Assembly: GCA_963710375.1 (NCBI GenBank)
Contig: CAVPZX010000005.1
Location: 256,001-320,000 of the forward strand
From: Nitrospirota bacterium
GTDB lineage: Bacteria > Nitrospirota > Thermodesulfovibrionia > Thermodesulfovibrionales > Dissulfurispiraceae
DNA: 64,000 nt
Direction of reading: 5' to 3'
A program made the position numbers and the translations under genes. This document shows positions 9,823-62,833 of this stretch, piece after piece. Each line of letters opens with the position of its first letter. Position 1 is the first letter of the stretch. A model generated the notes under the pieces. The model worked only from the letters and a program-made list of their open reading frames with translations, had not been told where the DNA came from and made no database searches.

Positions 9823-11802
9823 ATGAAGATCCTCCTTGTTTTTGACGCCTCTATAAAAGTTGAATTGTCATACAATTTCAACAAGGAATCTGTTATTGAG
9901 GGAATAGACCTCTTCCCTCTTACCGGGAATCCGGCAATAATAGATAAGGTAAAAAATACTCTCTCATCTAATGCATGCCCTGTAGAGTCCCTTAACACTG
10001 CCGATATGGTCGAGAAGCAAATTGATTATCTGAAGGGGAGGATATGCAGATGGTCAGCTGATATTGGTGAATACAGGATCAGGGAGAAAAAAATTAAGGA
10101 GTGGTTTCTCTTAAAAGGCGAGAATGTCAGTACATGGTGGTTTAGCCTGCTTTCTGAAAAGAATACGGGCAAAACAGATGCTTTTTTAAAAATGGCTCAA
10201 GTACATGCCATAGATGATATTTTAAGAAGTAAATGCTATCCCTTATGCGCCATTGCGATTTCAGATAAGGAGTTAAGAAAATCTGTTCTAAATGTTGCCC
10301 ATAAATTCGGGTCAAAAATAAGAATATTGCCGACAATCCCTCCCAAAGCCCTGAAGCTTAAAATGCAAGCTATGTTAAAGCAAATGGGGATAGCAGGTGA
10401 GCTCCTTTTGGGGATTTACATCTGGCTTCGATTTTTAAACAGAAGACATCTGGCCCTTAAGCGGTTAGGGGTTAACTGCAAACGTCTTCCAAGTCCAGAC
10501 TCTCTATTATTGGTAAGCTATTTCCCGGCTGTAGAAAAAAAACCTGCACAGAGGGGAATATTTATAAATAAATATGCTTCTGCTTTGCAAGATAAACTAA
10601 AGGAGCTTAAAATCCCGATAGTATGGGTGCTTATGTACGTTCCAATTGATGGATATAAATATAGTGATGCAGTTAATTTAACTCTTGGCTTCGCTGAGAA
10701 TGGTGAAAAGGCTTTTATAGCAGAAGAATTTTTATCAACAAAAGACGCCATTAGGGGATTATTGCTTTGGCTTAAACAAATGGTCATTAGTTTTTTTTTA
10801 TTGGGTGTTGCAAAAGAACGTTTACTGTCCGGGGTGATTGGACCTGAATGCGAACCTATTATAAAGTCATTATGGAGAGTATCTTTTTGCGGGGTTATTA
10901 ATCTTGAAGCGATACTTTACTATTTTATCTTTAAATCCGGCTTTGATCAAATTCCCGGTATAAAGGATTGTCTGTATTGGTGTGAAATGCATGCATGGGA
11001 AAAAGCCTTAAATGCTGCAAAAAATCAGAAGCATTCTTATATCCGTACGATTGGTTTTCAGCATGCTCACATTTCAAAAAACCATTTCGCCTATTTTTAT
11101 GACCCGTTAGAGTTGCGGGGAGGGCGAGGAGCTGTTGATATGCCGATGCCTGATCTGGTGGCATGCAATGGAGAATATATGTGCTCTATCCTCTCAAAGT
11201 CAGGCTATCCCTGCCTTGCCAGAGTGGAAGCCCTGAGATATCTTTATATGAATAAAATTCTACTATCCGCTCAACGGGCCAAAGGAGAAAATATCCTGTT
11301 AGTAGCAGGCTCTATCATGAAAGATGAATCCGCCACCTTGCTTTCATTTGTTCATAGCGCCTTCCCCAAGGCAAGGGAATTTGGTATATGGTTTAAAGGG
11401 CATCCTCTGTTGCCTTTTGAGCAATTGTTTGAGGAACTCGGAATTGATCTATCCGAAACAGGATATCAAATCAGGCATGATCTTATCTCAGATTTGCTTG
11501 GTGAAGCTAGGACTGTTATAGTTGGTTCAAGCGGGATTGCGATGGAGGCACTAATCTTTGGATGCGAAGTGATTGTTCCAGTCTTCCCGGATTCAATAAA
11601 TATGAATCCACTTGTTGACTTTGAAAAATATTACCATAGAGTAACCTGCATAGAAGATCTTCAATTGGTAATGGAAGAGATCTCAAAAGGTGTTCGACGG
11701 AATGACATTGACGAGACCAGGGGGCTCATTAAGCACTATTGGGAAATGGACGATGCATTGCATAACTGGGAGCGACTTTTATTGTCGAACAAGAAGGACT
11801 GA
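9823..11802 (+). CDS. Surface-carbohydrate biosynthesis protein (TIGR04326/LIC13510-like), probable GT-B transferase
   Basis: 659 aa; STWWFSLLSEKN, EMHAWEKAL, IGFQH, PMPDLVACNG, VEALRYLY, KGHP motifs. Confidence 0.6.
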   Translation: MKILLVFDASIKVELSYNFNKESVIEGIDLFPLTGNPAIIDKVKNTLSSNACPVESLNTADMVEKQIDYLKGRICRWSADIGEYRIREKKIKEWFLLKGENVSTWWFSLLSEKNTGKTDAFLKMAQVHAIDDILRSKCYPLCAIAISDKELRKSVLNVAHKFGSKIRILPTIPPKALKLKMQAMLKQMGIAGELLLGIYIWLRFLNRRHLALKRLGVNCKRLPSPDSLLLVSYFPAVEKKPAQRGIFINKYASALQDKLKELKIPIVWVLMYVPIDGYKYSDAVNLTLGFAENGEKAFIAEEFLSTKDAIRGLLLWLKQMVISFFLLGVAKERLLSGVIGPECEPIIKSLWRVSFCGVINLEAILYYFIFKSGFDQIPGIKDCLYWCEMHAWEKALNAAKNQKHSYIRTIGFQHAHISKNHFAYFYDPLELRGGRGAVDMPMPDLVACNGEYMCSILSKSGYPCLARVEALRYLYMNKILLSAQRAKGENILLVAGSIMKDESATLLSFVHSAFPKAREFGIWFKGHPLLPFEQLFEELGIDLSETGYQIRHDLISDLLGEARTVIVGSSGIAMEALIFGCEVIVPVFPDSINMNPLVDFEKYYHRVTCIEDLQLVMEEISKGVRRNDIDETRGLIKHYWEMDDALHNWERLLLSNKKD

Positions 11803-12040
11803 GGACTGAGTGGAACAGCAAGGCAAGGACTGAGAGCAAAAGGAAGGACTGAGGACTGAGTGCAAAGGCAAGGAAAGGACTGAGGGCAAAAGCAAGGACT
11901 GAGGACTGAGTGGAACAGCAAGGAAAGGACTGAGGGCAAAAGGAAGGACTGAGGACTGAGTGGAACGGCAAGGCAAGGACTGAGAGCAAAAGGAAGGACT
12001 GAGGACTGAGGGCAAAGGCAAGGCAAGGACTGAGGGCAGA
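11795..12040 (+). repeat. GGACTGA-family tandem array (five ~50-nt higher-order units)
   Basis: AGGACTGAGGACTGAG starts at 11795, 11845, 11895, 11945 and 11995; purine-rich linkers between. Confidence 0.95.
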
Positions 12041-12085
12041 AAAAGGCTTGTTAGTATGCCGCAAAATAAACTATAGTCACAATTG

Positions 12086-12115
12086 TTGACACATTCAGTC
12101 CAGGATGGGTATGCT
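12086..12115 (+). promoter_or_regulatory. Putative sigma70 promoter of the TA module
   Basis: TTGACA (12086-12091), 18 nt, TATGCT (12110-12115); AGGAG RBS before ATG 12130. Confidence 0.5.
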
Positions 12116-12129
12116 GATTTCAGGAGAAC

Positions 12130-12399
12130 ATGATGAAGATAGCAACAGTAAAAGAGTTTAGGGACAAGGCAACAGCCTATTTCAAGGATGAAGAACCTGT
12201 CCTTGTTACAAGACATGGAAAGGTGACAGGCCTATACCTGCCGATAGAACATCCGGAGAGCTTTCCTGAAGAACTAAGGAAAGATCTGCTTATCCGTATA
12301 GGGGAATTAGTAAGCCGGTCACTGGAAAGAAAGGTCTTGACCGAGGAAAAGATCCTTGCAGACTTCGACTCCTATAAGAAAGCTCGCCGCAGACGCTAA
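12130..12399 (+). CDS. Phd/YefM family antitoxin
   Basis: MKIATVKEFRDKA...EPVLVTRHGK signature, 89 aa. Confidence 0.85.
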   Translation: MMKIATVKEFRDKATAYFKDEEPVLVTRHGKVTGLYLPIEHPESFPEELRKDLLIRIGELVSRSLERKVLTEEKILADFDSYKKARRRR

Positions 12400-12536
12400 T
12401 GTAATTCTGTCCGATTGAATTACTCGCTCTTGCCATGAAATTGAATGTCCCTGTCTGGACCAATGACAATGATTTTAAGCATTCCGGTATCGAAGTATTT
12501 ACCACTGCAAGATTATTAAAAGCCCTTAAGTTATAA
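12356..12536 (+). pseudogene. PIN-domain toxin remnant (internal deletion plus frameshift)
   Basis: N-terminal KLAADANVILS stops at 12418; C-terminal ELLALAMKLNVPVWTNDNDFKHSGIEVFTTARLLKALKL is in another frame (12417-12536); the middle is missing. Confidence 0.75.
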
Positions 12537-12578
12537 AAAGACAGAGGAATAAAAGACCAGGACCAAGGAATATTCGAA

Positions 12579-13547
12579 TTGAGAAGAGTCTTTATATCTA
12601 CTACGTCTTTCGGCAAGGAAGAGGGCAGTCCACTTGAATTGCTTAGGAATGCAGGGCTGGAGATCCATTTGAACCCGTATGGAAGAAAATTGACCGAAGA
12701 TGAAGCGATGGAGCTTCTATCTGATATGGATTATCTCATAGCAGGCACAGAACCCCTAACTGCCAGGGTGCTGAATTCCGCAAAAAAACTTAAGGTGATT
12801 TCGCGCTGCGGCGTCGGGATGGATAACGTTGATATGGAAGCTGCTTCTCTGTTAGGCATAAAGGTATTCAATACTCCTTATGGCCCCACGCAGTCTGTTG
12901 CCGAACTGACTGTTGGGTTGATGCTTGACTTACTTCGCAGAGTTACGGCCATGGACCGTGACGTGAGGAGAGGGACATGGAAAAAACGTATGGGCAATTT
13001 GCTGAATGGCAAGAGAGTCGGAATCATCGGTTTCGGGAAAATAGGACAAAAAGTTGCGGGGCTGCTCATGCCTTTCGGGGTCGAACTGTCTTATTGCGAT
13101 ATATGCGCCTGCGACTGCTCGCTGCCTGCCTCAGCGATGGCGATGGATGAGCTGCTTCCATGGGCTGACATTGTTACGCTCCACTGTTCCGCTCCTCAAT
13201 CATGTGGGGCTTTAATTAGGGCTGAGGAGTTGTCCAAGATGAAAAAAGGATCGTGGTTGGTGAATGCCTCCAGGGGGGGCTTGATTGATGAACAGGCCTT
13301 GTATAATGCTTTGAAAGATGGACATCTTGCAGGAGCAGCCCTCGATGTTTTTGACAAGGAGCCATACAGCGGACCACTTGCCGGGTTGGACAATGTCATT
13401 CTTACGCCGCATATCGGGTCGTATGCAAAAGAAGGGCGTATCGAAATGGAAATTCAGGCAGCGGAGAACCTCTTAAAAGGACTGAGTGAGAAAACAAGGA
13501 CTGAGGGTAAAACAAGGACTGAGTTAAAAGACAAGGACCAGGACTGA
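12579..13547 (+). CDS. D-isomer-specific 2-hydroxyacid dehydrogenase (phosphoglycerate dehydrogenase-like, no ACT domain)
   Basis: SRCGVGMDNVD, GIIGFGKIG, VNASRGGLIDE, ALDVFDKEP, LTPHIGS; last ~20 aa are repeat-derived. Confidence 0.9.
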   Translation: MRRVFISTTSFGKEEGSPLELLRNAGLEIHLNPYGRKLTEDEAMELLSDMDYLIAGTEPLTARVLNSAKKLKVISRCGVGMDNVDMEAASLLGIKVFNTPYGPTQSVAELTVGLMLDLLRRVTAMDRDVRRGTWKKRMGNLLNGKRVGIIGFGKIGQKVAGLLMPFGVELSYCDICACDCSLPASAMAMDELLPWADIVTLHCSAPQSCGALIRAEELSKMKKGSWLVNASRGGLIDEQALYNALKDGHLAGAALDVFDKEPYSGPLAGLDNVILTPHIGSYAKEGRIEMEIQAAENLLKGLSEKTRTEGKTRTELKDKDQD

Positions 13548-13631
13548 GGACTGAGTGGAAAGGTAAAACAAGGACTGAGTTAAAAGACAAGGACCAGGAC
13601 TGAGGACTGAGTGGAAAGGCAAGGACTGAGG
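13478..13631 (+). repeat. GGACTGA-family array upstream of four-helix-bundle gene 1 (includes a 56-nt tandem duplication)
   Basis: Repeated AAGGACTGAG; 56-nt unit at 13506 and 13562. Confidence 0.92.
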
Positions 13632-13632
13632 G

Positions 13633-14040
13633 ATGAGTAAAATTGAAAGGTTTGAGGATTTGATTGCCTGGCAGAAGGCAAGGGTTTTGGTAAAAGAAAT
13701 ATACCGGATTACAAAGAACCAGTATTTTTCGAAGGATTTTGCTCTTTCTGGACAGATTCAACGTGCTGCAGTATCTGTTATGTCAAACATAGCAGAGGGT
13801 TTTGAGAGGGGTGGGCGAGCAGAGTTTCACCAATTTTTAGTTATAGCTAAGGCCTCTTGTGCTGAAGTTCGTTCGCTTTTGTATGTCGCTTTAGATATCA
13901 GATATATTACAGAAGATGAATTTAACACATTCAATAATTTAGTCGTGGAGACCGGTAGAATTATTGGAGGCATACGTGTTGCAGTGCAGAAACAAAAAGA
14001 TGGAGCTAAAACAAGGACTGAAGGTAAAGGCAAGGACTGA
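13633..14040 (+). CDS. Four helix bundle protein (TIGR02436 / 23S rRNA-IVP / bAvd-like) #1
   Basis: [48 protein letters not shown] family signature. Confidence 0.93.
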   Translation: MSKIERFEDLIAWQKARVLVKEIYRITKNQYFSKDFALSGQIQRAAVSVMSNIAEGFERGGRAEFHQFLVIAKASCAEVRSLLYVALDIRYITEDEFNTFNNLVVETGRIIGGIRVAVQKQKDGAKTRTEGKGKD

Positions 14041-14230
14041 GGGTAAAACAAGGACTGAGGACTGAGGTAAAGGCAAGGACTGAGTGGAACAACAAGGACT
14101 GAGGACTGAGCGAAAAGAGCGAAAGAATCAGGACTGAGTGAAAAGACAAGGACTGAGGACTGAGGTAAAGGCAAGGACTGAGGGTAAAACAAGGACTGAG
14201 GACTGAGTGGAAAGGACTGAGAGACAAGGA
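14008..14230 (+). repeat. GGACTGA-family array downstream of four-helix-bundle gene 1
   Basis: Dense AAGGACTGAGGACTGAG copies; one copy supplies the stop codon at 14038-14040. Confidence 0.92.
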
Positions 14231-14277
14231 TTACAGCGCATGTTTATTGTTACTTTGACTTTATTCTTGTTTTTTAA

Positions 14278-14510
14278 ACTCAGTTCTCAGTCCTGGTCTT
14301 GTCCTTTAACTCAGTCCTATATTTTAAGAGTTTTTACGCTCAGTCCTCAGTCCTGGTCTTGTCTTTTAACTCAGTCCTATTTTTTAAGAGTTTTTAAACT
14401 CAGTTCTCAGTCCTGGTCTTGTCTTTTAACTCAGTCCTATTTTTTAAGAGTTTTTTACTCAGTCCTCAGTCCTCAGTCCTTGTTTTTATTAGTTTTAACT
14501 CAGTCCTTGG
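14278..14510 (-). repeat. Reverse-complement arm (TCAGTCC) with ~60-nt higher-order period
   Basis: Near-identical 60-nt units at 14281, 14341 and 14401; TCAGTCCTGGTCTTGTCTTTTAACTCAGTCC is nearly the reverse complement of the 13516-13547 unit. Confidence 0.92.
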
Positions 14511-14516
14511 TTTTTT

Positions 14517-20150: not shown

Positions 20151-20774
20151 ATGGGAACGTTTTGGAATGTGAGCAGTATAAAAGGGACTACCATAAATTT
20201 TATCGACACTCCTGTCATTGGAACAGCTTCATTTCTGATTCCTCTATATATCTTCCTGTTTGCTATCGCAGCAGTTATGTTCTTGATGATGAGTCGGAAC
20301 CACCTGCAAGTTAAAAGGCATGCAGTTGTGAGAGCTTTGCTTTTGGCCTTTGTCACAGCAGCCGTGTTGTTTGCGGCAAGAATGGATTATGGGTGGTATA
20401 AGATGTGGCAGCTTGACAGTAAGAATCCGCAGGGAAGCCTTGATGAAAGTATTGCTATGGATCTGCGGACAGTAAACTCATTTGTAGAGGCATTCAAGAA
20501 AGCAGTGCCTTTGTCCGAAAAAGTCGCAATTATTACAGACGATTCTTACGACAGGATGGTGCTGAAATACTACCTGCTGCCGATAAGAATTTCGGAGGAT
20601 GCAAATGATATTATTGTTTTCAGCAACAGGCATGTGGTTTTTGATACAGGACGTAATGCGCTTCTCGAAGATGGAAATGTCGTAGAGAATAACGTCAGCC
20701 TTGTTGCATCTTATGAAGGAAAGTTTTTTATATTCAGGAAAAAGGACAAGGACAAAAACAGGACTGAGGACTGA
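20151..20774 (+). CDS. Hypothetical membrane protein
   Basis: 207 aa with two hydrophobic segments and a YYLLP motif; C-terminus KDKDKNRTED is repeat-derived. Confidence 0.65.
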   Translation: MGTFWNVSSIKGTTINFIDTPVIGTASFLIPLYIFLFAIAAVMFLMMSRNHLQVKRHAVVRALLLAFVTAAVLFAARMDYGWYKMWQLDSKNPQGSLDESIAMDLRTVNSFVEAFKKAVPLSEKVAIITDDSYDRMVLKYYLLPIRISEDANDIIVFSNRHVVFDTGRNALLEDGNVVENNVSLVASYEGKFFIFRKKDKDKNRTED

Positions 20775-20818
20775 GTGGGAAGGACTGAGGAATAAAAACG
20801 AGGACTGAGGACTGAGTG
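20743..20818 (+). repeat. GGACTGA-family array at a gene junction with no four-helix gene
   Basis: Five GGACTGAG copies; they give the TGA stop at 20772-20774 and the GTG start at 20816. Confidence 0.9.
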
Positions 20819-22222
20819 AAAATCCTGATGCTTATTTATGCTTTTTTCTTGCCGACCGCGACGGGCTTCCTGTTTGTCAGCTATTTTTCCCGTTGCGATA
20901 ATAAAGAAAGTTTTTTTGAAAGACTATTTTTGGGGTTCGGTCTGGGTATGGGTATGCTCACTTTTGAGATGTTCATTACCGCCCTCTTGAAAATTAATTT
21001 TTCTCTGTTCGTCATATCACTAATGCAAATATTGACTGCGGCTTTATTTGCATGGCTGCTCTTCAGGTCCAAATATTCCCTGAAGGAAGTTCTCAATGTG
21101 TCGCCATTCCGCGATAAAATAACGTCAATTTTTAAAGTGTCCGGAGTGCAGTCTTTTTTCGTTTTGTTAGTAACGATCTGGATTATGCTCAAGTTCTTCT
21201 TTGTTCTTTATGAGAGCGCGACCTGGCCGGCATTCGGATGGGACAGCCTGGAAAATTGGAGTTCAGGGGCCAAATATTTCTATTACGTGAAAGGCTTGAT
21301 GCTCGATCATGGAAGCGAGCACTTTTTCGGCAAAGGATACAGGACCTTTTTGAATTATCCCCTGCATATACCATTAATGCAGGTTTGGGTTTCAGTATGT
21401 CTTGGAAACATCAATGAAGCATATATGAAATACTGGAACGTGGTTTATTTCATCAGCGTTGTCGCTTTGGTTTATTTTGCAGTGAGAAGAGAAGCTTCTC
21501 AGGTTATCGCCATCCTGGCAGCTTTTTTCCTTTCCTCAGTGCCGCTGCTTACATACCATGCAATCGATGCGTATGCGGATTTGCCTCTGAGTTATTACGC
21601 GCTCGCCACCGCCATTTGCTTTCGGAGATACATGGAAAAGTCTGAGAAACAAAGAGATGAAAATTATGGATTCCTGGTCCTCATTGGGGTATTTTCAGCT
21701 TTATGCATGTGGACGAAATTAGAAGGCATTCTGTTCGCTCTCGCTTTCAGTGCGACCCTGTTACTGTATCTTCTGCTGAAAAGGAGTTCATACAGGAATT
21801 TTATAAAAAGCCTTTTTTTCTATTCTTTACCGATTGGCATAATAGGAATATCGTGGTTCACTTTTTTGACTTTAAACGGTGTAAAAGGCCGCAGTATACT
21901 CGCCTTTGGTCTTCATTTTGAGGTTATTCCTGTGATCCTGAAACAGATATTTTTCTCGGCAAATTTTAATATTATTTTCCTGTTTTCCCCGCTAATTATT
22001 CTATTGGGCATCAGAACAATTTTGCATTCTGACTTAAAATATCTGCTTGCCCACCTATTAATGGTGATGTTGATGTTCCTTTTCATTTATATCGCAACGA
22101 ATAATTATATATTTGCAATGAATTTGACAGCGGTAAATCGCAGCGTACTGACTTTTATCCCCGCGATGTATTATATTAGCGCCCTGATAGCAGCACATAT
22201 GCTGGGAAAAGAAAAGGACTGA
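20816..22222 (+). CDS. Polytopic membrane protein, ArnT/PMT (GT-C) glycosyltransferase-like
   Basis: About 12 TM segments, WD...W loop, NYPLHIP, YADLPL, WTKLEG. Confidence 0.7.
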   Translation: MKILMLIYAFFLPTATGFLFVSYFSRCDNKESFFERLFLGFGLGMGMLTFEMFITALLKINFSLFVISLMQILTAALFAWLLFRSKYSLKEVLNVSPFRDKITSIFKVSGVQSFFVLLVTIWIMLKFFFVLYESATWPAFGWDSLENWSSGAKYFYYVKGLMLDHGSEHFFGKGYRTFLNYPLHIPLMQVWVSVCLGNINEAYMKYWNVVYFISVVALVYFAVRREASQVIAILAAFFLSSVPLLTYHAIDAYADLPLSYYALATAICFRRYMEKSEKQRDENYGFLVLIGVFSALCMWTKLEGILFALAFSATLLLYLLLKRSSYRNFIKSLFFYSLPIGIIGISWFTFLTLNGVKGRSILAFGLHFEVIPVILKQIFFSANFNIIFLFSPLIILLGIRTILHSDLKYLLAHLLMVMLMFLFIYIATNNYIFAMNLTAVNRSVLTFIPAMYYISALIAAHMLGKEKD

Positions 22223-22490
22223 GAAGGAAAGGCAAGGACTGAGCAAGAGACAAAGGGACTGAGGACTGAGAAGGAAAGGCAAGGACTGAGGACTGAGCAA
22301 AAAAGACAAGGACTGAGGACTGAGTGAGTAAAATTGAAAGGTTTGAAGATTTGATTGCGTGGCAAAAATCAAGACTTTTGGTAAACCTATGAGGACTGAG
22401 AGGAAAGAAGACGTCAAAATGACTCAGTCCTCAGCACTCGGCCCTCAGTCCTTGTCTCTCAGTCCTCAATCCTCGGCCCTCAGCCCTTGT
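22214..22490. repeat. GGACTGA arm (22214-22325, 22392-22400) and TCAGTCC inverted arm (22422-22490)
   Basis: Read directly; the inverted arm is translated as the N-terminus of the downstream GT2. Confidence 0.9.
22324..22392 (+). pseudogene. 5' remnant of a four helix bundle gene paralogous to 13633-14040
   Basis: GTGAGTAAAATTGAAAGGTTTGAAGATTTGATTGCGTGGCAAAAATCAAGACTTTTGGTAAA ([20 protein letters not shown]) versus [20 protein letters not shown]. Confidence 0.88.
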
Positions 22491-24929: not shown

Positions 24930-25023
24930 ATATAGGCGCAAAGAGCATAGCGCATAGGGCAAAGGGCGAAACAAAGAAAAAAAGACCGCAAAGAGCATAG
25001 CGCATAGGGCAAAGGCAAAGAGG
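24930..25023 (+). repeat. GCAAAGR/GCATAGS 7-mer array upstream of four-helix-bundle gene 2
   Basis: GCAAAGAGCATAGCGCATAGGGCAAAGG occurs twice (24938, 24988). Confidence 0.9.
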
Positions 25024-25401
25024 GTGAAATTCAGGTTTCAGGATTTAGAGATATGGCGAATGGCAATAGAGATTGCTAATGAGCTTTTTGATATTGCTGA
25101 CAAACTTGAGGCAAAACGGTTATATCGTTTTGCTGAACAATTGCGCGGTGCAGGGATGAGTATGTCTAACAATATTGCTGAAGGTTCAGGGAGCGGCTCA
25201 AAGACTGAATTTAGGAATTTCTTGAATATAGCAAAGCGCAGCACTTTTGAAAATGTAAATATTATGATTCTCCTGAACATGAGGAGGCTGATAGATGATA
25301 ATATGCTGGAGAAGATGCTTGAACGACTTGATATGCTTTGTCGTAAGATAACAAACTTTCAGAAAACATTGATCGCAAAGAGCAAAGGGCAAAGTGCATA
25401 G
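25024..25401 (+). CDS. Four helix bundle protein (TIGR02436-like) #2
   Basis: FRFQDLEIW, EQLRGAGMSMSNNIAEGSG, EFRNFLNIAKRSTFEN; C-terminus and TAG stop come from the repeat. Confidence 0.92.
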   Translation: MKFRFQDLEIWRMAIEIANELFDIADKLEAKRLYRFAEQLRGAGMSMSNNIAEGSGSGSKTEFRNFLNIAKRSTFENVNIMILLNMRRLIDDNMLEKMLERLDMLCRKITNFQKTLIAKSKGQSA

Positions 25402-25475
25402 AACGAAAAACAACAAACAGAGGACAAAAAAATGCAGCCATCTGTCTTGTTTGCATTTGACGCCTTCGGCTGTTA

Positions 25476-25550
25476 CCCTATGCTCCTTGCTCTTTGCCCT
25501 ATGCGCTTTGTCTTTTGCGCTTTGCCCTATGCCCTATGCCCTTTGCGCTT
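25476..25550 (-). repeat. Inverted arm (CCCTATG/CTTTGC 7-mers)
   Basis: CCCTATGCTCCTTGCTCTTTGCCCTATGCGCTTTG...GCCCTATGCCCTATGCCCTTTGCGC is complementary to the 24930-25023 array. Confidence 0.9.
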
Positions 25551-26222
25551 AAGACTATTGCGTGGGATGTGGATGATGTTTTGAATGATTTGATGCAGTC
25601 GTGGTTTGAGCTGAAATGGCTGAAAGACCATCCTGAATGCAAAATCAAATACGAAGAACTTGCAGAAAATCCGCCCCACAGGATATTAGGGGTTGATGTC
25701 CATTCATATCTCGAATCCCTCGATGAGTTCAGATTGTCGCCTTTGTATCTGGAAATGAGACCTGTAGAAGAAGTGATGGAGTGGTTTAATAAAAATGGGA
25801 ATAGTTTTCGCCATGTGGCGTTGACTGCTGTTCCGCTCATTGCGGCTCCAGTATCTGCGCACTGGGTATTTAAGCACTTTGGGCCATGGATAAGGACATT
25901 TCATTTCATACCTTCCAGGAGGAAGGGGCAATGCATTCAGGAATACGATAGTGATAAGGGAGCATTCTTGAAATGGATAGAAAAGGCCGATGTTTTCCTG
26001 GATGACAATCCTGCAAATATACAGGCTGCAGAAAGCTCCGGCGTTATGGGCATTATAATACCTCGCCCCTGGAATAAGGCAACGGCGCAGAGAGCAAAGA
26101 GCATAGGGCAAAGAGCAGAGAGCAAAGGGCAGAGAGCAGAGGGCAAAGGGCAAAGGGCAGGGGGCAAAGGGCAAAGGGCAAAGTCAATTACCGAAGCTCT
26201 AAAAAATTTAAATGGTTTATAG
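25536..26222 (+). CDS. HAD-like 5'(3')-nucleotidase/phosphatase with an in-frame repeat insertion
   Basis: IAWDVDDVL, LTA, FLDDNPANI, PRPWN; the start ATG lies in a repeat (exact start uncertain). Confidence 0.75.
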   Translation: MPFALKTIAWDVDDVLNDLMQSWFELKWLKDHPECKIKYEELAENPPHRILGVDVHSYLESLDEFRLSPLYLEMRPVEEVMEWFNKNGNSFRHVALTAVPLIAAPVSAHWVFKHFGPWIRTFHFIPSRRKGQCIQEYDSDKGAFLKWIEKADVFLDDNPANIQAAESSGVMGIIIPRPWNKATAQRAKSIGQRAESKGQRAEGKGQRAGGKGQRAKSITEALKNLNGL

Positions 26223-26290
26223 GTCGGATTTATCTATTTTTTTGCCTTATGCCTTTAACACTATGCTCTATGCTCTTTGCGCTTTGCTCA
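26087..26290. repeat. GCAAAGG array (26087-26183, in frame inside the CDS) and inverted arm (26243-26290)
   Basis: About 14 7-mer units encode QRAKSIGQRAESKGQRAEGKGQRAGGKGQRAK; CTATGCTCTATGCTCTTTGCGCTTTGC follows the stop. Confidence 0.9.
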
Positions 26291-26306: not shown

Positions 26307-28133
26307 GTGATCAAATTATCTGATTACGTAATTAAATTCGTTTCTGATATCGGCGTAAAGCATATTTTTATGCTGCCGGGCGGCGGTTGTATGCATCTTG
26401 TGGACTCAGTGGGCAAAAACAAAAAAATCGAATTTGTGGGATGCCTGCATGAACAAGCGGCAGTGATTGCCGCAGACGGGTATGCACAATACAACGGTAA
26501 TGCCGGAGTTGCACTCGTAACCACAGGGCCGGGAAGCACCAATGCAATAACAGGTGTTGCCGGGGCGTGGATCGATTCAACGCCGGTCATGATTTTATCA
26601 GGCCAGGCCAAGCGGAAAGACCTTCTTGCCGGAAAAGGCGTTCGCCAGATGGGCGTTCAGGAAGTGGATATCGTCTCTCTGGTTAAACCAATAACAAAGT
26701 ATGCCGTCACTGTGCTTGAGCCTGAAAGCATTCGATATCATCTCGAAAAAGCTTATCATACGGCCTGTCATGGCCGCCCTGGTCCTGTGTGGCTGGATAT
26801 CCCCCTTGACGTACAGGGGTCCGTAATCGATGAAACAAAGCTGCGCGGGTTTAATCCTTCAGATGATGAATTCGCCCTATGCCCTATGCCCCATGCCCTT
26901 TGCCCTTCTACATTGCCGGAGTTGGTCGATAAGGTTGTTTCCATGCTGAACAATGCTGAACGTCCGGTGATTCTGGCCGGCCGGGGCATACGCCTTTCAA
27001 AGGCAATGGCGGAGTTCTGCAGTGTGATAGAATCGTTGAAGATCCCTGTTTTGACGACCTGGAGACTGGCGGATTCATTGCCTGAAGACAGTGAAGTTTT
27101 CTTTGGCAGGCCCGGCTCCATCACTTCCAGGGGGGCTAATTTTGTTCAACAGAATGCCGATTTTATTCTGGTTATCGGGGCACGACTCGATCTGCCGCAG
27201 GTCGGACACAGTTACGCGAATTTTGCGCGCGCCGCCAGGAAGGTTGTAGTTGATATTGATGGAAATGAAATTAAAAAGATTGACACTAAAATCGATCTGC
27301 CAATAGTAAGCGGCGCAGGAGAGTTCCTTAAAGAGCTTATCAATAAATTAAATAAGGTAAAACTCAGGGACATATCAGCTTGGACATCAAGATGCAAAGC
27401 GTGGAAGGAAAAATATCCGGTTATACTGCCGGAATACCTTGAACCTGCGGGCTATGTCAATACTTATGCCCTGATAGACGTGCTTTCAGAAGTTTTGACC
27501 AGTGATGACATTATCGTTCCGGGAAGCTCGGGCAGTTGCGCTGAAATTACTCCTCAAGCCTTCAGGGTCAAAAAGGGACAGAGAATTATAAATTCACCTG
27601 GGTTGGGGTCAATGGGATATGGCCTTCCGCAGAGTATCGGGGTCTGTCTGTCCGGGGGCAGTAAGAGGACTGTATGTATCATAGGCGATGGTGGACTTCA
27701 GCATAACATTCAGGAACTCGAAACCTTAAAAAGACTCAATATCCCCGTTAAGCTTTTCGTCCTCAACAACAACGGTTATGCAGCTATCAGGGGCACACAC
27801 AAGCGCTTTTTTGAGGGGCGACTGGTCTGCTGTGATCCATCGAGCGGACTCACACTGCCTGATGCATGCAAGATCGCCTCTGCATATGGCCTGAAAACGG
27901 TCAGGATATCTGATCAGAGGAACTTAAGAGAAGAAGTCGTTAATGTCCTTAACATGGAAGGCCCGGTTGTATGCGATGTGATGGTTGATCCTGACTTGCA
28001 GATGGCCCCAAAGCTTTCATCAATGGCAAGACCGGACGGGTCGATGGTTTCCAAGCCGCTTGAAGACCTCTGGCCTTTTCTAGACAGGGAAGAATTCAGG
28101 GCGAACATGATAATTCCTCCACTGGAGGATTAA
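26307..28133 (+). CDS. Thiamine diphosphate-dependent enzyme (acetolactate synthase/YerE-like)
   Basis: LHEQAAVIAADGYA, VTTGPGSTNA, GRPGPVWLDIPLD, GSMGYGLP, GDGG...NNNGY ThDP motif; AAGGAGG RBS. Confidence 0.92.
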   Translation: MIKLSDYVIKFVSDIGVKHIFMLPGGGCMHLVDSVGKNKKIEFVGCLHEQAAVIAADGYAQYNGNAGVALVTTGPGSTNAITGVAGAWIDSTPVMILSGQAKRKDLLAGKGVRQMGVQEVDIVSLVKPITKYAVTVLEPESIRYHLEKAYHTACHGRPGPVWLDIPLDVQGSVIDETKLRGFNPSDDEFALCPMPHALCPSTLPELVDKVVSMLNNAERPVILAGRGIRLSKAMAEFCSVIESLKIPVLTTWRLADSLPEDSEVFFGRPGSITSRGANFVQQNADFILVIGARLDLPQVGHSYANFARAARKVVVDIDGNEIKKIDTKIDLPIVSGAGEFLKELINKLNKVKLRDISAWTSRCKAWKEKYPVILPEYLEPAGYVNTYALIDVLSEVLTSDDIIVPGSSGSCAEITPQAFRVKKGQRIINSPGLGSMGYGLPQSIGVCLSGGSKRTVCIIGDGGLQHNIQELETLKRLNIPVKLFVLNNNGYAAIRGTHKRFFEGRLVCCDPSSGLTLPDACKIASAYGLKTVRISDQRNLREEVVNVLNMEGPVVCDVMVDPDLQMAPKLSSMARPDGSMVSKPLEDLWPFLDREEFRANMIIPPLED

Positions 28134-28188: not shown

Positions 28189-28205
28189 AGATGGAGGATA
28201 AAGCT

Positions 28206-32953: not shown

Positions 32954-34060
32954 ATGTCTGCGCAAAAAGTGGAGCGTTATTTGCGGGATAACCCTCTCGC
33001 GGGTGACTTAGATCACGTCCTGACCCATACTGAAGGCCTTTGGGAAGACCTCAGGGGGAAACGCCTGTTTATTACGGGCGGCACAGGTTTTTTTGGTTCC
33101 TGGCTTCTGGAGAGTTTTGCCTGGGCGAATGAAAAGCTCGATCTTAAAGCGTCAGCCCTTGTTCTTACAAGGGATTACAATTCATTCAAACAGAACCTTC
33201 CGCATCTAGCCGCCAATCCGGCTATCCGGTTTCATACAGGAGATGTCAGGAATTTCAACTTTCCCGAAGGGGAATTCTCTCACATAATTCACGCCGCAGC
33301 CACATCGGCTGTTGCCACATACAACAACGAAGACCCACTGGTGAAGTTCGATACCGTTGCAGGGGGAACAAGGCATACCCTCGATTTTGCTGTTCTATGT
33401 CATGCCGGGAAGTTCCTTCTGACCAGTTCCGGGGCTGTCTACGGCAAGCAGCCATTCGACCTGACTCACATTCCAGAAGATTATTGCGGCGCACCCGATC
33501 CAGCGGACGCAAGCTCGGCGTGGGGAGAGGGCAAACGGGCGGCAGAATTCCTCTGTGCGTATTATTCGAAAAAATATGGCATCGAAACAAAGATTGCCCG
33601 TTGTTTTTCTTTTGTAGGCCCCTACCTGCCATTGGATATCCATTACGCCATTGGAAACTTCATAAGGGACGCATTGAATGGCGGACCTATCCGGGTCAAC
33701 GGCGATGGAACGCCTTATCGGTCCTATCTCTATGCTGCTGATTTGACCGTATGGCTATGGACGATCCTTTTTAAGGGCGAATCATGCCGGGCTTATAATG
33801 TCGGCTCGGAAGAAGAAATTACTATAGCGGAGTTGGCCAATACAGTGGCACGGAGCTTTCAGAAGCCTGTTGATGTGAAAATAGCTGAATTACCAGCCCC
33901 CAATAGGCCCCCCGAACGATACGTGCCTTCTACAAAACGGGCGCAAATGGACTTGGGAGTTAGACAGATCATTGATCTGGGAACAGCCATTGAGCGAACA
34001 GCGGCATTTGTCAACATGATAAGCAAAAAAAGACTGAACCACAGAGGCACAGAGACATAG
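32954..34060 (+). CDS. NAD-dependent epimerase/dehydratase/reductase
   Basis: ITGGTGFFGSW, IHAAA, SSGAVYG, GEGKRAAE, ARCFSFVGP, RSYLYAAD. Confidence 0.9.
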   Translation: MSAQKVERYLRDNPLAGDLDHVLTHTEGLWEDLRGKRLFITGGTGFFGSWLLESFAWANEKLDLKASALVLTRDYNSFKQNLPHLAANPAIRFHTGDVRNFNFPEGEFSHIIHAAATSAVATYNNEDPLVKFDTVAGGTRHTLDFAVLCHAGKFLLTSSGAVYGKQPFDLTHIPEDYCGAPDPADASSAWGEGKRAAEFLCAYYSKKYGIETKIARCFSFVGPYLPLDIHYAIGNFIRDALNGGPIRVNGDGTPYRSYLYAADLTVWLWTILFKGESCRAYNVGSEEEITIAELANTVARSFQKPVDVKIAELPAPNRPPERYVPSTKRAQMDLGVRQIIDLGTAIERTAAFVNMISKKRLNHRGTET

Positions 34061-34137
34061 AGAAACAAATGAAATTTTTAAAAGAAAGCAGCAAATCTTT
34101 GACTAAAGTAGTACTCTGTGCCTCTGTGTTCTCTGTG
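34040..34137. repeat. CACAGAG(R) arm (34040-34062) and CTCTGTG inverted arm (34114-34137)
   Basis: CACAGAGGCACAGAGACATAGAG ... CTCTGTGCCTCTGTGTTCTCTGTG. Confidence 0.85.
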
Positions 34138-57689: not shown

Positions 57690-57938
57690 TTGCATACTAA
57701 ACTTACACTTCGTCTTGACGACGGATTAATAGAAAAAACCAAAAAAATTGCAAAGGCACGTAATTCAAGCCTTTCAGAAATGGTTGCTGAATTCTTTAAG
57801 TCTGTCACAGGCAGCTACGCCGGGGAGGTGAACAAATCGCCTGTTTTGACCGAGGTAACAGGAATTTTAGGCGGTAAATATAGCCCGAAGGCCCTGCGCA
57901 GCAGTTACAGGCGCCATATTGAGGAAAAATACCGTTGA
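57690..57938 (+). CDS. DUF6364-type antitoxin
   Basis: TKLTLRLDDGLIEKTK..A...SLSEMV..FF...SP....TGIL...EEKY; GGGAGG RBS. Confidence 0.82.
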   Translation: MHTKLTLRLDDGLIEKTKKIAKARNSSLSEMVAEFFKSVTGSYAGEVNKSPVLTEVTGILGGKYSPKALRSSYRRHIEEKYR

Positions 57939-58364: not shown

Positions 58365-58546
58365 TGCAATTCAGACAGTAGATGAATCTCTGAAGCATTA
58401 GCGGAGTTTTGGAAACAGTTCTTGGCGAGTGAGCGTTAAACAGGAGCGAAACTGACCGAAGGGAATTTTGCGACTGTAGCGAGACGAGTCATAGAACTGT
58501 CAAAACGGAGCGTAGCGAAAGAGAGTCATCTACTGTCTGAATTGCA
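58365..58546. mobile_element. 182-bp palindromic element (MITE-like or structured RNA) with 27-bp terminal inverted repeats
   Basis: TGCAATTCAGACAGTAGATGAATCTCT / AGAGAGTCATCTACTGTCTGAATTGCA (26 of 27 complementary); inner stem ACAGTTCT/AGAACTGT. Confidence 0.6.
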
Positions 58547-58633
58547 GTTCCCATAATACGTTATATTTGAAAAAGTGTTAAAATTATTAAAGTGTTTATA
58601 CTATGGCTTTTCTGCAGTGTGTGAGATTATTCC

Positions 58634-59608
58634 ATGCCTAAAGTGAGCATTATCATTGTCAATTATAACGGAGAGCGGGTACTTGGGGATTGTCTCAGGG
58701 CTGTTGAGGGACAGACCTTCAGGGATTTCGAAATTGTTCTCGTAGACAACGCCTCCACTGATGGTTCACAGTCACTGGCCGGACATCTTAACTTTATCTC
58801 TTTGCCGGAGAACCGGGGTTTCACAGGAGGAAATATAGAGGGACTGCGGCATTGCGCCGGGGATTATATCGTCCTTCTTAACAATGACACGGAGCCGGAA
58901 AGGGGATGGCTTCAGGCCCTTGTGGATGCTGCAGATGCCCATCCGGAAGTCGGCATCTGCGCTTCGAAGCTGATCAAACACGGCACTAATCGTATTGACA
59001 GCGCAGGAGACCTCTTTTCCAAAGCCTTGAAAGGGTTTAAGCGCGGCGAGGGTGATGTTGACAATGGTTTTAACCGGGAGGAGTACATTTTCGGCGCCTG
59101 CGCAGGAGCGGCGCTGTACAGGCGTTCAATGCTGGATGAAATAGGCTTCCTGGATGAGGACTTTTTTTTGATTCACGAAGATACTGATTTGAACTGGAGG
59201 GCGCAGCTTGCAGGCTGGAAGGTATTGTATGTCCCATCTGCTGCGGTATATCATAAAGTAAGGTCAACTATAGGTCAGATGAGCGATCTTGCTGTTTACT
59301 ATACACTGAGAAATGCCGTATTTGTAAGGATAAAAAATATCCCCTTCCGTGTATTCCTGCGCTGCCTGCCTTCTTTTCTTGCCGGAATGCTGACGGAGTT
59401 TTTTTTGTTCGGCATAAGACACAGGCGTCCGGGGCTGTATATCAAGGCGAAAAGTGATGCTCTGCGACTGCTCCCGCGGATGTTAAAAAAAAGAACTGAC
59501 ATTATGAAGAAACGTAAAGTGTCTGATGCGTATATACTTTCGTTAATGACCTCTGTATGGGAGAAGAAATTCCTGCGGGCCAAATTCAAGAGATTGCTCT
59601 ATGGTTAG
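58634..59608 (+). CDS. Glycosyltransferase family 2
   Basis: VSIIIVNYN, VDNASTD, LLNND, GACAGAALYR, FLDEDFF..HED.DL.WR. Confidence 0.93.
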   Translation: MPKVSIIIVNYNGERVLGDCLRAVEGQTFRDFEIVLVDNASTDGSQSLAGHLNFISLPENRGFTGGNIEGLRHCAGDYIVLLNNDTEPERGWLQALVDAADAHPEVGICASKLIKHGTNRIDSAGDLFSKALKGFKRGEGDVDNGFNREEYIFGACAGAALYRRSMLDEIGFLDEDFFLIHEDTDLNWRAQLAGWKVLYVPSAAVYHKVRSTIGQMSDLAVYYTLRNAVFVRIKNIPFRVFLRCLPSFLAGMLTEFFLFGIRHRRPGLYIKAKSDALRLLPRMLKKRTDIMKKRKVSDAYILSLMTSVWEKKFLRAKFKRLLYG

Positions 59609-60515
59609 CGTTATTATTCTCACTCTCAACGCGGGTGAAAGATTGCGTTCCCTCCTGGAGGCCCTGCTGCCGCAAACGGTGCCGTTGGAGCTAATGGTGG
59701 TCGATTCCTCTTCAACAGACAGTACACTTTCTATTGCTAGAGCTTACGGGGCAAAAGTCGCAACAGTGCAGAGGAGTGATTTCGATCATGGCGCTACCCG
59801 AAATTTCGGTATCCTCCAGACTTCCGGAGACATTGTGGTATTCCTAACGCAGGATGTGGTTCCTGTGGGTAGAGATACGATGGAGAGGCTTATCGCGCCT
59901 TTTTATGCCGATGAACTGGTAGGATGTGTTTATGGAAGGCAGCTGCCTTCCCCCGAAGCCACGGTTTTTGCCGCACACTCACGGATTTTCAATTATGGCC
60001 CTACTTCACTGGTAAAGTCCCGGGAGAACGGCGAAAGGGGAATAAAGGTCCCTTTTCTCTCTAATTCCTTTGCCGCATACAGGAGAAAAGCACTTGAAGA
60101 AATTGGTCTTTTTAAAGAAGGCCTTATCTCAACAGAGGACACATACGCAGGAGCCAGGATGCTCATGGCCGGTTACAGGATCGCCTACGCATCGGACGCT
60201 GCGGTATACCATTCACACAACTATACTCTCATGGAAGAATTCCGGCGGTACTTCGATATAGGGGTCTTTCACCGGAGGGAAAAATGGATTATTGAAACCT
60301 TTGGAAGGGCGGAGGACGAGGGGAGCAGATTTCTACTGTCTGAGTTGCGGTATATAGCCAGGGAGGCTAAATATGGTCTTCTGCCCGAATTTTTGGCCCG
60401 GAATAGTTTAAAATACCTTGGCTTCTCCCTTGGACGGCAGTATGAAAAACTGCCTTTGAAAATAATTAATAAAATTGAGCAAGAACAAAAATTATTGGGA
60501 AAAAAAACAGGTTAA
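59601..60515 (+). CDS. GT2 rhamnosyltransferase-like protein
   Basis: VDSSSTD, FDHGATRN, FLTQD, YGRQLP, SNSFAAYRR, VYHSHNY, RYFDIG; possible frameshift in the last ~15 codons. Confidence 0.9.
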   Translation: MVSVIILTLNAGERLRSLLEALLPQTVPLELMVVDSSSTDSTLSIARAYGAKVATVQRSDFDHGATRNFGILQTSGDIVVFLTQDVVPVGRDTMERLIAPFYADELVGCVYGRQLPSPEATVFAAHSRIFNYGPTSLVKSRENGERGIKVPFLSNSFAAYRRKALEEIGLFKEGLISTEDTYAGARMLMAGYRIAYASDAAVYHSHNYTLMEEFRRYFDIGVFHRREKWIIETFGRAEDEGSRFLLSELRYIAREAKYGLLPEFLARNSLKYLGFSLGRQYEKLPLKIINKIEQEQKLLGKKTG

Positions 60516-60580
60516 GGTTGAGGTTGAGGTTAAGACTGGCGGTTCTTAGTTTTTCTTAACCTTAACCTTAGCCTTAACCT
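60508..60580. repeat. AGGTT(A/G) arm, unique core and TAACCT inverted arm
   Basis: AGGTTAAGGTTGAGGTTGAGGTTAAG-ACTGGCGGTTCTTAGTTTT-TCTTAACCTTAACCTTAGCCTTAACCT. Confidence 0.92.
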
Positions 60581-60603
60581 ATATGTGGATATGCGTATCA
60601 ATA

Positions 60604-62046
60604 ATGGATATAAAGAAACTGCCGGTATAGCGGGCGCTTGCCTCGCTGGACATTGCATCCTTTTATCTGTCCCTGTTTCTTGCTTATTACGCGCGCAAAT
60701 TTCTAAATACTGTTTTCCCGGGTCTCATACCTCTGGAATTCGGCCTGCGCCACTTTGTCCTTTTCTGGTGGATGCCGGTCATCTTCATCCTCGTCATCGC
60801 ATACGAAGGGCAATTCACAAAGAGGATGCCTTTCTGGGACGAAGTAAGAGAATTGATAAAGGCAATTACCGTGGCCGTCGTTGTTATCTTTGCGGTCACT
60901 AGTCTCGGAAAGTTCACCTACAAAATATCCAGGCTTACTTTCATCCTGCTATACATGTGCAGCATAGTTGTCTTTCCTTTTATGCGGCTTATGGGGAAGA
61001 AGATGCTATACCGGATGAATATCTGGAGGGAAAACCTTATTATCATCGGCGCGGGAAGGGCTGGAAAGGAAATTGCCAGGGGCATCGATAGCGAAAGTCA
61101 TATGGGGTACAATATCATCGGATTCCTCGACGACGATCCGGACAAGATAGGCCGGACAATAGAGATCAATAACAAGGAACTCAAGGTCTTCGGCAAGGTA
61201 AAGAATTTCAGGAAATTCCTCTCGCTGATGGATGTTCCAACGGTGATTATTGCAATTCCCTCCCTCATTGTGGAGGAGCTCACGAAGCTGACTGAGGATG
61301 TTCAGAAATATACCAGGCGCGTCCTTCTCGTGCCCGACCTGAAAGGCATTGCCCTGGTAAACACCGAACTCGAGAACCTGTCCGGGCAGCAACTGTTTAT
61401 GCTGAAGATCAACAACAACCTGAAGTCGGACTTCAATAAATTTGTCAAGAAGTGCTTCGACGTTGTTTTCTCCATTCTCTTGTTGCCTTTCCTTTTCGTT
61501 ATGGTGGTCATCTTTGGGATTTTGATACGCGCGGATTCCAGGGGAACTGTTTTCCTAATGCAGGACAGGATCGGCAAGGGGGGGAAGCTTTTCAAATGCA
61601 TAAAGTTCAGGACCATGTTCTCGAACGCTGACGAAATATTGGACAACTATCTTGAAAAGAACGAAGAGGTCAGGGCTGAGTGGAGCCGGTACAAAAAACT
61701 TCGTGATTATGATCCGCGCGTAACACGGGTGGGCAGGTTTCTGAGAAGGACCTCCCTGGACGAACTGCCCCAGATTTTCAATGTGCTTGCCGGCGATATG
61801 AGTTTCGTGGGCCCGCGCCCCTATCTGCCTGAGGAAGAGGAGGAGATACGGGGATATTCCGATCTGATCTTAGTCGCCAGCCCCGGGATCACCGGGCTCT
61901 GGCAGGTCTCGGGCAGAAACATACTGGATTTCGATGAAAGGGTGAGGCTCGCCGTATGGTACGTCCTGAACTGGTCCCTCTGGCTCGACATAGTCATCCT
62001 TTTCAAGACTATCAGGGTAGTCCTAAACAAGGAGGGAGCGTATTAA
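60604..62046 (+). CDS. wbaP: Undecaprenyl-phosphate sugar phosphotransferase (initiating enzyme); in-frame TAG at 60628-60630
   Basis: [73 protein letters not shown]; the frame continues upstream of ATG 60772 through a TM helix. Confidence 0.88.
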
Positions 62047-62049
62047 AAC

Positions 62050-62188
62050 AGGTTAAGGCTAAGGTTAAGGCTGAGAAAACAGAAGGGCTTATTAAGTCAG
62101 GTTAAAGGCTAAGGCTACGAAAAACTAAGGACTGTCAGTCTTAACCTCAACCTCAACCTCAACCTTAGCCTGCCTTTTTAAGGTTAAG
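62050..62188. repeat. AGGTTA/AGGCTA arm, core and TAACCT/CAACCT arm upstream of four-helix-bundle gene 3
   Basis: Read directly; 62099-62172 is an inverted copy of 60508-60580. Confidence 0.9.
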
Positions 62189-62206
62189 AAAACAAAAAAT
62201 ACACAT

Positions 62207-62572
62207 ATGTATAAAACTTTTAAAGAGATGCCAGTGTGGCAAAAGGCAATTGATGCTGCTGAAATAGTGCATGAGCTTACGATAAAATTACCTAGAAAAG
62301 AAGATTACGGATTTACTTCACAAATAAGAAGGTCTGCTCTAAGTATATCGGCGAATATAGCAGAAGCATTTGGAAGAAATCATACTATGGACAAAATAAA
62401 TTTTTATTATATGGCGAGAGGCTCTTTAACTGAGACTCAAAGCCATTTAGAATACGGTAAAAGAGTTGGCTATATTAATTCCCAAAAAGCTGATGAACTC
62501 GAAAAAGTTTTTTGCGATATTCACAACGCTATAAATAAAGTAATTTTAACCTTGCGAGGACCAAACAAATGA
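62207..62572 (+). CDS. Four helix bundle protein (TIGR02436-like) #3
   Basis: FKEMPVWQKA, LPRKEDYGFTSQIRRSALSISANIAEAFGR, FYYMARGSLTETQSHL. Confidence 0.93.
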   Translation: MYKTFKEMPVWQKAIDAAEIVHELTIKLPRKEDYGFTSQIRRSALSISANIAEAFGRNHTMDKINFYYMARGSLTETQSHLEYGKRVGYINSQKADELEKVFCDIHNAINKVILTLRGPNK

Positions 62573-62589
62573 CTGGTCGGCTTTCCCCC

Positions 62590-62833
62590 TTAACCTTAAC
62601 CTTAACCTTAACCTTAACCTATTCTTTAGGGGTGTCTGAATGACAGTTCTTTTTTACATTTTAATCTTAACCTTAACCTTAGCCTATTCTTTAGGGGTGT
62701 TTAAATGACAGTTCTCTTTTACAATTTAATCTTAACCTTAACCTTAACCTTAACCTTAACCTATTCTTTAGGGGTGTCTGAATGACAGTTCTTTTTTACA
62801 TTTTAATCTTAACCTTAACCTTAGCCTTAACCT
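62590..62833 (+). repeat. TAACCT arrays inside three tandem copies of an RBS+ATG unit
   Basis: CTATTCTTTAGGGGTGT(C/T)T(G/A)AATGACAGTTCT(T/C)TTTTACA(T/A)TTTAATCTTAACC occurs three times with variable (TAACCT)n. Confidence 0.93.

Follow-up and report, generated by a model that had tools for sequence, protein, structure and literature searches.

The DNA analysed here (the window) is a stretch of 64,000 nucleotides from a Nitrospirota bacterium (source genome G000, assembly GCA_963710375.1; contig CAVPZX010000005.1, written G000:C5:256001-320000), in which three genes for small four-helix-bundle proteins are each embedded in arrays of a different short tandem word. The genes with their arrays are interpreted below as cassettes of self-spreading repeats, likely of a class not described before. 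A profile scan of the 67 window open reading frames (ORFs) found mostly glycan-biosynthesis genes and three ORFs, 13633-14040, 25024-25401, and 62207-62572, that match PF05635 at E values of 4e-36, 1e-24, and 1e-33, respectively. All three score above the cut-off of TIGR02436, in agreement with both the curated profile and the four-helix fold, and fall below that of the model for Avd, a protein of diversity-generating retroelements (DGRs) (27.8 versus 80 bits). The structure model of the 13633 product (pLDDT 94.8) gave a Foldseek match to 2GSC at E 5e-6 and resembles XCC0516 (2GSC) and BT0352 (2RLD), and more weakly Avd (TM 0.70 to 4DWL). The PDB sequence relatives 2GSC and 2RLD are both five-chain entries, and by homology to these two and to Avd, the four-helix proteins are predicted to be homopentamers.

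Each gene lies between purine-rich arms of its cognate word and reverse-complement arms (Table 1), and these cassettes fold far more stably than shuffled sequence (z -3.4 to -27), in line with an earlier suggestion that the transcript can fold into long hairpins. That suggestion came from a preliminary description of this DNA, which had also placed the arrays where they were found again and had put three genes and one remnant each in a different repeat family. The three TIGR02436 genes and the remnant are real, but the remnant is of the 13633 type, so that three, not four, families with genes are present in the window. The remnant matches 17 of the 20 initial residues of the 13633 product and then ends, inside a GGACTGA doublet that appears to be a cassette in decay toward a gene-less hairpin. 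The stop codon of ORF 9823-11802 comes from the first GGACTGA arm of the array at 11795. In total, G000 has six full four-helix genes and one weak match; all six full genes are enclosed by their own inverted arms, the three beyond the window with the words GTGAAT, GGCAAT, and an 8-mer GAAG word, and five of the six have a glycan-gene neighbourhood.

Table 1. Arms, doublets, and four-helix-bundle genes of the window (window positions; genes are named by their first position)
Feature	Position	Strand	Remark
GGACTGA purine arms, 50-bp higher-order repeat	11795..12038	+	no partner arm nearby
GGACTGA purine arm 5' of gene 13633	13477..13632	+	overlaps end of 2-hydroxyacid dehydrogenase ORF
Four-helix-bundle gene, cognate word GGACTGA	13633..14040	+	PF05635/TIGR02436
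Further GGACTGA arms	14007..14515	+	purine 14007-14230; reverse-complement 14265-14515, cassette ends just 5' of HAD start
Single GGACTGA purine arm	20760..20816	+	at stop/start junction
GGACTGA doublet, loop with first ~20 codons of a 13633 copy	22207..22490	+	remnant from 22324
Two four-unit GCA(A/T)AG arms	24938..25015	+	after neuB-like stop codon
Four-helix-bundle gene, cognate word GCA(A/T)AGN	25024..25401	+	PF05635/TIGR02436
Purine arm over end of gene 25024 and closing reverse-complement arms	25375..25550	+	
GCAWAG doublet	26078..26289	+	purine arm in frame within NT5C-like ORF
Reverse-complement GCAWAG arm	26874..26906	+	in frame in thiamine-pyrophosphate (TPP)-enzyme gene, N/middle domain border; also in G002
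Gene-less CACAGAG doublet, three units per arm	34040..34137	+	
Gene-less AGG(T/C)T(A/G) doublet	60509..60580	+	four units plus fifth AG per arm; provides upstream stop codon
AGGTTA doublet	62050..62171	+	3' of wbaP-like stop codon, 5' of gene 62207
Four-helix-bundle gene, cognate word AGG(T/C)(T/A)N	62207..62572	+	dN/dS 0.09-0.15 versus five homologues
Reverse-complement AGGTTA arms, 65-77-bp block about three times	62588..62833	+	copy number not confirmed by public contigs

The arrays are not assembly artefacts. One public contig covers 23405-27500 with 2 differences, a second shows 9 differences and 2 gaps over 58502-62618, and a nearly identical version of the region is present in public contigs from two studies; the best-matching public run is possibly the source sample, and the second study also spans the region. 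Because public contigs break inside both the GGACTGA arrays and 62588-62833, the exact copy numbers there are unconfirmed.

The same words recur throughout the genome as doublets, in which a purine arm is followed, after a loop, by a reverse-complement arm. A wider screen found 224 purine-arm-first doublets of 11 families versus one reversed, and a strict screen found 137 versus 0, with 444 arms versus 1 in two shuffled genomes; the purine-first polarity first noticed in the window extends genome-wide, well beyond chance expectation. Since gene calls were made with our own dicodon model, some error attaches to the orientations and distances of doublets. The AGGTTA pattern alone forms 73 clusters in G000, and hybrid doublets, in which two families are mixed, are rare (2/168). 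The flanks and loop halves are A-rich on the 5' side and T-rich on the 3' side, and the loops showed no structure beyond composition (mean z -0.18). Each family had been described as local to its gene; instead, 89/93 AGGTTA, 9/11 GCAWAG, and 7/12 GGACTGA sites are over 10 kb away from the gene of their word. Each family is nonetheless denser close to its gene than expected, which explains the earlier impression.

The system is not one of a glycan locus, as had been supposed, but of the whole genome. Doublets lie mostly in housekeeping operons, most of which retain their gene arrangement in the sister species, with nuoB/C, guaA, rplL, tuf, rpsH-rplF-rplR-rpsE, motA/B, clpA, and smpB among their neighbours (45 flanking ORFs scanned). 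A recombination scaffold that shuffles glycan genes, one of three functions initially proposed, would suit the position of five of the six genes among glycan genes, the greater density of the families near these genes, and one loop seen by eye in opposite orientations at one junction of two species, but it is hardly credible for doublets that mostly occupy collinear housekeeping operons.

Some doublets are associated with RNA genes: AGGTTA doublets are found beside tRNA genes and within a duplicated, probably rRNA-operon spacer (G000:C2:686597-687202 and C2:1070228-1070311), and one lies just 5' of the tmRNA-like gene that comes after smpB. Other dispersed repeat families of 125-400 bp, with many sister-genome copies (L258:15011-15195; L259:14240-14430, 15148-15273, and 18390-18563; L260:1760-2150), resemble miniature inverted-repeat transposable elements, have no relation to the tandem-word doublets, and are found in some relatives' loops.

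By setting, the 224 doublets comprise 162 between co-directional, 22 between convergent, and 25 between divergent genes, 14 in coding sequence, and 1 at a contig end; the co-directional share of the intergenic doublets (162/209) exceeds the 65% background (p 2e-4). The purine arm starts a median of 5 nt from the upstream stop codon, and the stop codon lies within the arm in 46/162 cases. These positions could reflect a host regulatory network, in which each pentamer, as a TRAP-like RNA-binding regulator, would attach to the purine arm of the transcript as it emerges and control hairpin formation, termination, stability, or translational coupling at sites under host selection. The arm length of five anchors described below and the conservation of the genes and of core arm positions fit such a network, and a mobile repeat-binding protein has been speculated for TAACTGA repeats in the accessible text of PMC4679880. 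The purine-first order is as compatible with a switch acting during transcription as with elongation from two 3' ends. On the other hand, the same junction holds different families or none in sister species, the target genes have no common function, and 47 doublets are convergent or divergent, with 14 more in coding sequence. Furthermore, many families have no gene, and G-U wobble in the largest family does not depend on transcription direction (T/C 202/43 versus 212/38), with one position of another family being skewed. Host regulation is thus rather unlikely. A related candidate, hairpin-bridged translational coupling, was rejected because ribosome-binding motifs are no rarer after doublets (53% versus 42-55%).

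The arms of the proposed mobile elements are capped in length. The modal arm has four full periods for 6-, 7-, and 8-base words alike, and for all three periods an arm that has reached unit 4 gains another with a probability of 0-0.17, as against 0.55-0.75 before. Four-unit arms are followed by a fifth anchor (AG, G, GG, or AAT) in 91/95, 52/62, 24/26, 19/19, 14/14, 8/9, and 7/7 cases; for the single-G anchor, the 52/62 seen compares with about a quarter expected by chance. The four-unit cap also holds for words free of G runs, such as AATTANG and GTGAAT. All five protomers of the Avd pentamer touch an RNA stem-loop, as far as the accessible text of bioRxiv 2023.10.23.563531 describes it. Four periods within five anchors, together with the five-chain relatives, suggest that a five-subunit ring could read the arm, and a repeat-specific binder, another of the initial proposals, would be compatible with this arm length. 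The four-unit cap is less clear in the window's GGACTGA arrays, which are longer and built as higher-order repeats.

Within arms, variants are mixed at fixed positions, and 74/95 and 61/62 arm sequences are distinct. Orthologous arms differ at 41/624 core versus 116/272 variable positions, the core figure being biased low because the arms were placed on the core. Mirroring of variants between the two arms of a doublet is in slight excess in the outer register (23.7% versus 20.1%, p 0.003) and absent from the inner register; therefore, neither arm is an exact copy of its partner. Polymerase slippage, which is mentioned for heptamers in the accessible text of PMC4692102, might make such repeats passively, and they would then be retained because they terminate transcription in both directions or stabilise mRNA, the gene being a mere hitch-hiker. 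The base composition of flanks and loop halves and the 22 doublets at convergent junctions agree with this by-product view, but the four-period cap is not geometric, units are mixed within arms, the polarity is 224:1, loops are homologous, the word tracks the protein across phyla, and the genes are under purifying selection. The passive explanation is largely refuted by these observations and is very improbable.

The pairing of word and protein was followed in 264 distinct homologues drawn from relatives, the phylum, one species-genome scan, one metagenome scan, and one viral-contig scan. At 229 homologous loci with full flanks, both arms were present at 146 and some array at 204, compared with 6 and 88 of 458 control ORFs. 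The cognate word accompanies 70/70 homologues of 25024 at 60% identity or more versus 4/179 below, 7/7 homologues of 62207 at 50% or more versus 6/242 below, and 10/15 homologues of 13633 at 60% or more, in several phyla, versus 1/234 below. Among 75 proteins of less than 70% identity, at 7-mer loci only, nearest-neighbour unit similarity was 0.572 versus a null of 0.419 +/- 0.020, with a maximum of 0.481 in 2000 shuffles; 54/270 loci yielded no unit, and the automatic unit for 13633 was wrong and was set by hand to the observed word. A mutual-information scan of 75 proteins for a residue-to-base code gave clade-like markers only, and the independent-pair tests had 2-3 pairs; because no such code emerged, what is established is a stable protein-word pairing, not recognition. 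The four-helix genes are under purifying selection, with dN/dS of 0.05-0.15 in the 9/24 pairs that had measurable dS. In G002, the orthologous junction lacks gene 25024 and the same arms enclose a gene-less loop. The proposal that gene and cognate repeat form a unit is thus upheld by the prediction of the word from the protein clade, by gene-bearing and gene-less alleles at one junction, and by selection on the gene.

Word abundance was compared in 30 relatives (sister and relative genomes being labelled G001, G002, G003, G014, and G019). The GAAG word reaches 37-73 matches in the 3 relatives that have its gene and never exceeds 3 in the other 27; the AGGT word is abundant in all 4 relatives with its gene and also in several without, and GGACTGA is nearly restricted to G000 among relatives. 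The viral scan yielded one confirmed four-helix locus. Two DGR-type Avd genes beside reverse transcriptase genes have no arms; DGR-like loci with Avd-type, reverse-transcriptase-like, and target-like genes were also observed at L285 and L289 in G002 and G014. At L018 and L034, four-helix cassettes apparently lie within CRISPR-cas operons, as judged from the neighbouring genes. Cassettes in such operons would explain the listing of the family in cas loci (accessible text of PMC3936711).

Signs of turnover come from loops and junctions. Homologous loops form 72 pairs versus 0 expected, 66 of them within one family, with unrelated flanks and in both orientations. At 17 orthologous junctions compared by eye in up to five sister genomes, another family was found in one or more species at 15 and an empty state in one species at no fewer than 8; at the guaA junction of G003, the empty state is a plain stop/start overlap (by eye). 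Doublets can arise from cassettes through loss of the gene, as seen from the 22324 remnant and from the two alleles at the 25024 junction. Apparent excision of DNA was considered as well and rejected: the read joints have short sides of 20-39 bases, and because the listed intervening letters mostly match the loops of other doublets (by eye), the joints were read as cross-mapping.

Arms also enter genes. ORFs contain 45/444 arms, a count inside called ORFs that favours open frames, and in-frame arms or doublets occupy variable loops of RfbG, RfbH, TPP, NT5C, and tetratricopeptide repeat (TPR) proteins. Their length differs between species with the frame kept, and the coding-sequence arms are evidently translated. 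This bears on the idea that the stems are excisable mRNA intervening sequences removed by RNase III or splicing, like the intervening sequence (IVS) of 23S rRNA, which would render the insert harmless. The stems here are very stable, and the Coxiella IVS, which shares the protein family and likewise has heptamers and inverted repeats at its ends, is excised by RNase III in vitro (accessible text of PMC4990558). However, splicing would not need a frame kept through length changes, cleavage without ligation would break these mRNAs, and one frame-shifted coding doublet splits its gene; we consider mRNA excision quite improbable. Of the three options of the preliminary description, a mobile cassette fits best, whereas its excision from mRNA is weakened because the coding-sequence arms keep the frame and are evidently translated. 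At G000:C5:211100-218091 (L263:11100-18091), three paralogous membrane/TPR genes carry in-frame GGACTGA doublets, and one of them is interrupted where the frame shifts within its doublet, which might be a site of phase variation.

Based on these observations, a selfish system similar to REPIN-RAYT is proposed, comprising gene-bearing cassettes, gene-less miniatures, and a predicted pentamer as sequence adaptor for a postulated enzyme; its probability is put at about 0.55. The four-helix genes would be the gene-carrying members of several small hairpin-repeat families, and the dispersed gene-less hairpins would likely be non-autonomous miniatures of the cassettes. The pentameric ring may bind the purine strand when it is single-stranded, with one anchor per subunit, and could then act as the sequence adaptor for a postulated enzyme, probably encoded by the host, which would place hairpin copies elsewhere in the genome. 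Insertions may persist mainly where they directly follow a stop codon or where a protein loop tolerates them, and cassettes may pass between species inside glycan islands.

Several observations weigh against this proposal. The searches revealed no catalytic partner: RVT_1 gave no match in G000, which is 98.8% complete, and a single Y1_Tnp gene, with unlike inverted ends, was the only transposase found there, DDE and other families not having been searched genome-wide; among the 67 window ORFs scanned, no reverse transcriptase or transposase family appeared, as already noted in the preliminary description. No target-site duplication was seen by eye at the 17 junctions, where relatives are just 75-91% identical, and no recent identical copies were found except duplicated loci, nearly all arms being distinct. 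Words also occur without a detected gene, AGGT with 77 matches in G001, 117 in G003, and 21 in G019 and GCAWAG with 15 in G001 and 29 in G002, and G000 itself has five or six such word families. Under a strict pattern, gene-adjacent arms in other genomes are less sharply capped, with 127 of two, 100 of three, 98 of four, and 37 of five or more units. Finally, the covariation of protein and word could be plain co-inheritance, and the sister genomes are non-independent samples. The Y1 transposase gene lies at G000:C2:219442-220386 and is bounded by its own inverted ends of ~25 bp.

A fourth word in the window, CACAGAG, was described at the outset as having no gene, and its arms are three-unit in 8/8 cases. 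In other genomes the word is found on either side of GxxExxY genes, none of which was found in G000. Of 30 GxxExxY loci elsewhere, 22 were extracted, most with inverted 8-10-base arms; CACAGAG-type arms were recognised by eye at 6 and by the strict pattern at 5/30. The Pfam name of GxxExxY, PDDEXK_3, points to a PD-(D/E)XK nuclease fold. The design is therefore common to an unrelated protein family with another unit count. A broader and more tentative view, to which we give slightly less than an even chance, is that transposase-free mobile hairpins are widespread, that in each a small oligomeric protein sets the word and length of the arms, five-anchor arms belonging to pentameric four-helix bundles and three-unit arms to the nuclease-fold proteins of the GxxExxY family, and that a ring guides or even writes arms at gene ends, from which the heptamer repeats of many bacteria, long without an explanation, and, as a special case, ORF-bearing rRNA IVSs would result. 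In this view, the proteins would also form a natural library of repeat-specific nucleic-acid-binding rings.

Among known systems, REPIN-RAYT as described in the accessible text of PMC3337134 likewise has one gene per family flanked by its repeats, several families per genome, and many gene-less inverted doublets with variable spacers, outer A/T runs, and no hybrids. The family-pure, dispersed inverted doublets with variable spacer and the repeat-flanked gene by which such systems are recognised are all found here. Unlike REPIN-RAYT, the arms consist of tandem 6-8-base words and not of palindromes (REPs), are capped in length, and occur in frame in coding sequences, and the gene encodes a PF05635 four-helix bundle without a known catalytic site in place of a Y1 tyrosine transposase. 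The Coxiella 23S rRNA IVS (S23p) resembles the cassettes in its PF05635 protein, its terminal inverted repeats, and tandem heptamers 5' of the ORF, according to the accessible part of PMC4990558, and terminal inverted repeats around an S23p-family ORF are found here too. In contrast to rRNA IVSs, 6/6 genes of G000 lie between protein genes and not in an rRNA gene, and units lie between and inside protein genes with hundreds of gene-less relatives. The ORF-bearing rRNA IVS would then be one special landing site of a wider class; the four-helix family has also been noted in rRNA insertions of the candidate phyla radiation (accessible text of bioRxiv 2024.02.27.582315). Avd shares the fold and, in the parts of bioRxiv 2023.10.23.563531 at hand, binds an RNA stem-loop as a pentamer via five subunits. 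Unlike a DGR, G000 yielded no reverse transcriptase, the proteins fall below the Avd cut-off, and the two Avd-type genes beside reverse transcriptase genes lack arms. The system lacks a defining feature of each of IVS, REPIN-RAYT, and DGR, which is why a class of its own is suggested.

Heptamer repeats of other bacteria offer further parallels. Xanthomonas GGGAATC repeats are mostly of four units, form 70-75 inverted pairs, and lie near stops on the coding strand, and the accessible text of PMC4692102 gives their function as not known and explains the four units by G-quadruplexes. Unlike G-quadruplex heptamers, most words here have no G runs and thus do not offer four runs of at least three G. 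XCC0516 was predicted beforehand to lie at a GGGAATC repeat, and a supplement row of PMC4692102 has a four-unit repeat overlapping the XCC0516 start, a link that is not drawn in the portion of the article text at hand. The TAACTGA repeats of Beggiatoaceae and cyanobacteria are intergenic heptamer runs near gene ends that also occur in ORFs; unlike the doublets, they are reported as direct, and no four-helix, S23, or XCC0516 protein is named in the accessible text (PMC4679880). In a full-text literature search that left most subscription papers outside its reach, no paper joined gene, word, unit count, and dispersed doublets.

Elsewhere in the window, toxin-antitoxin-like pairs (Phd/PIN, BrnT/CopG, and DUF6364/PIN) are wedged among the glycan genes at 12130-12540, 28161-28918, 52356-52921, 53198-53802, and 57690-58348; the pair at 12.1-12.5 kb comes after the GGACTGA array, and its toxin frame is apparently broken. 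A WbsX/GT2 gene contains a 42-bp coding tandem repeat of 4.2 copies (45659-45833) that has no relation to the doublet system. The two ORFs of 18621-20109 are probably one 496-residue gene, because a single base at 19169 is missing from three public contig sets and the frame is then continuous. One- or two-base differences common to the public contigs are also found at 56451, 60466, and 60631; the window assembly may therefore hold small indel errors or strain differences.

The system is testable because one genome offers six protein-word pairs together with a sharp five-anchor prediction. If the proposal is true, a very common orphan protein family would gain a function, and bacterial heptamer repeats, the ORF in rRNA IVSs, and the origin of Avd would be tied together. 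The doublets also add peptide segments in frame to core enzymes and allow operon junctions to change rapidly.

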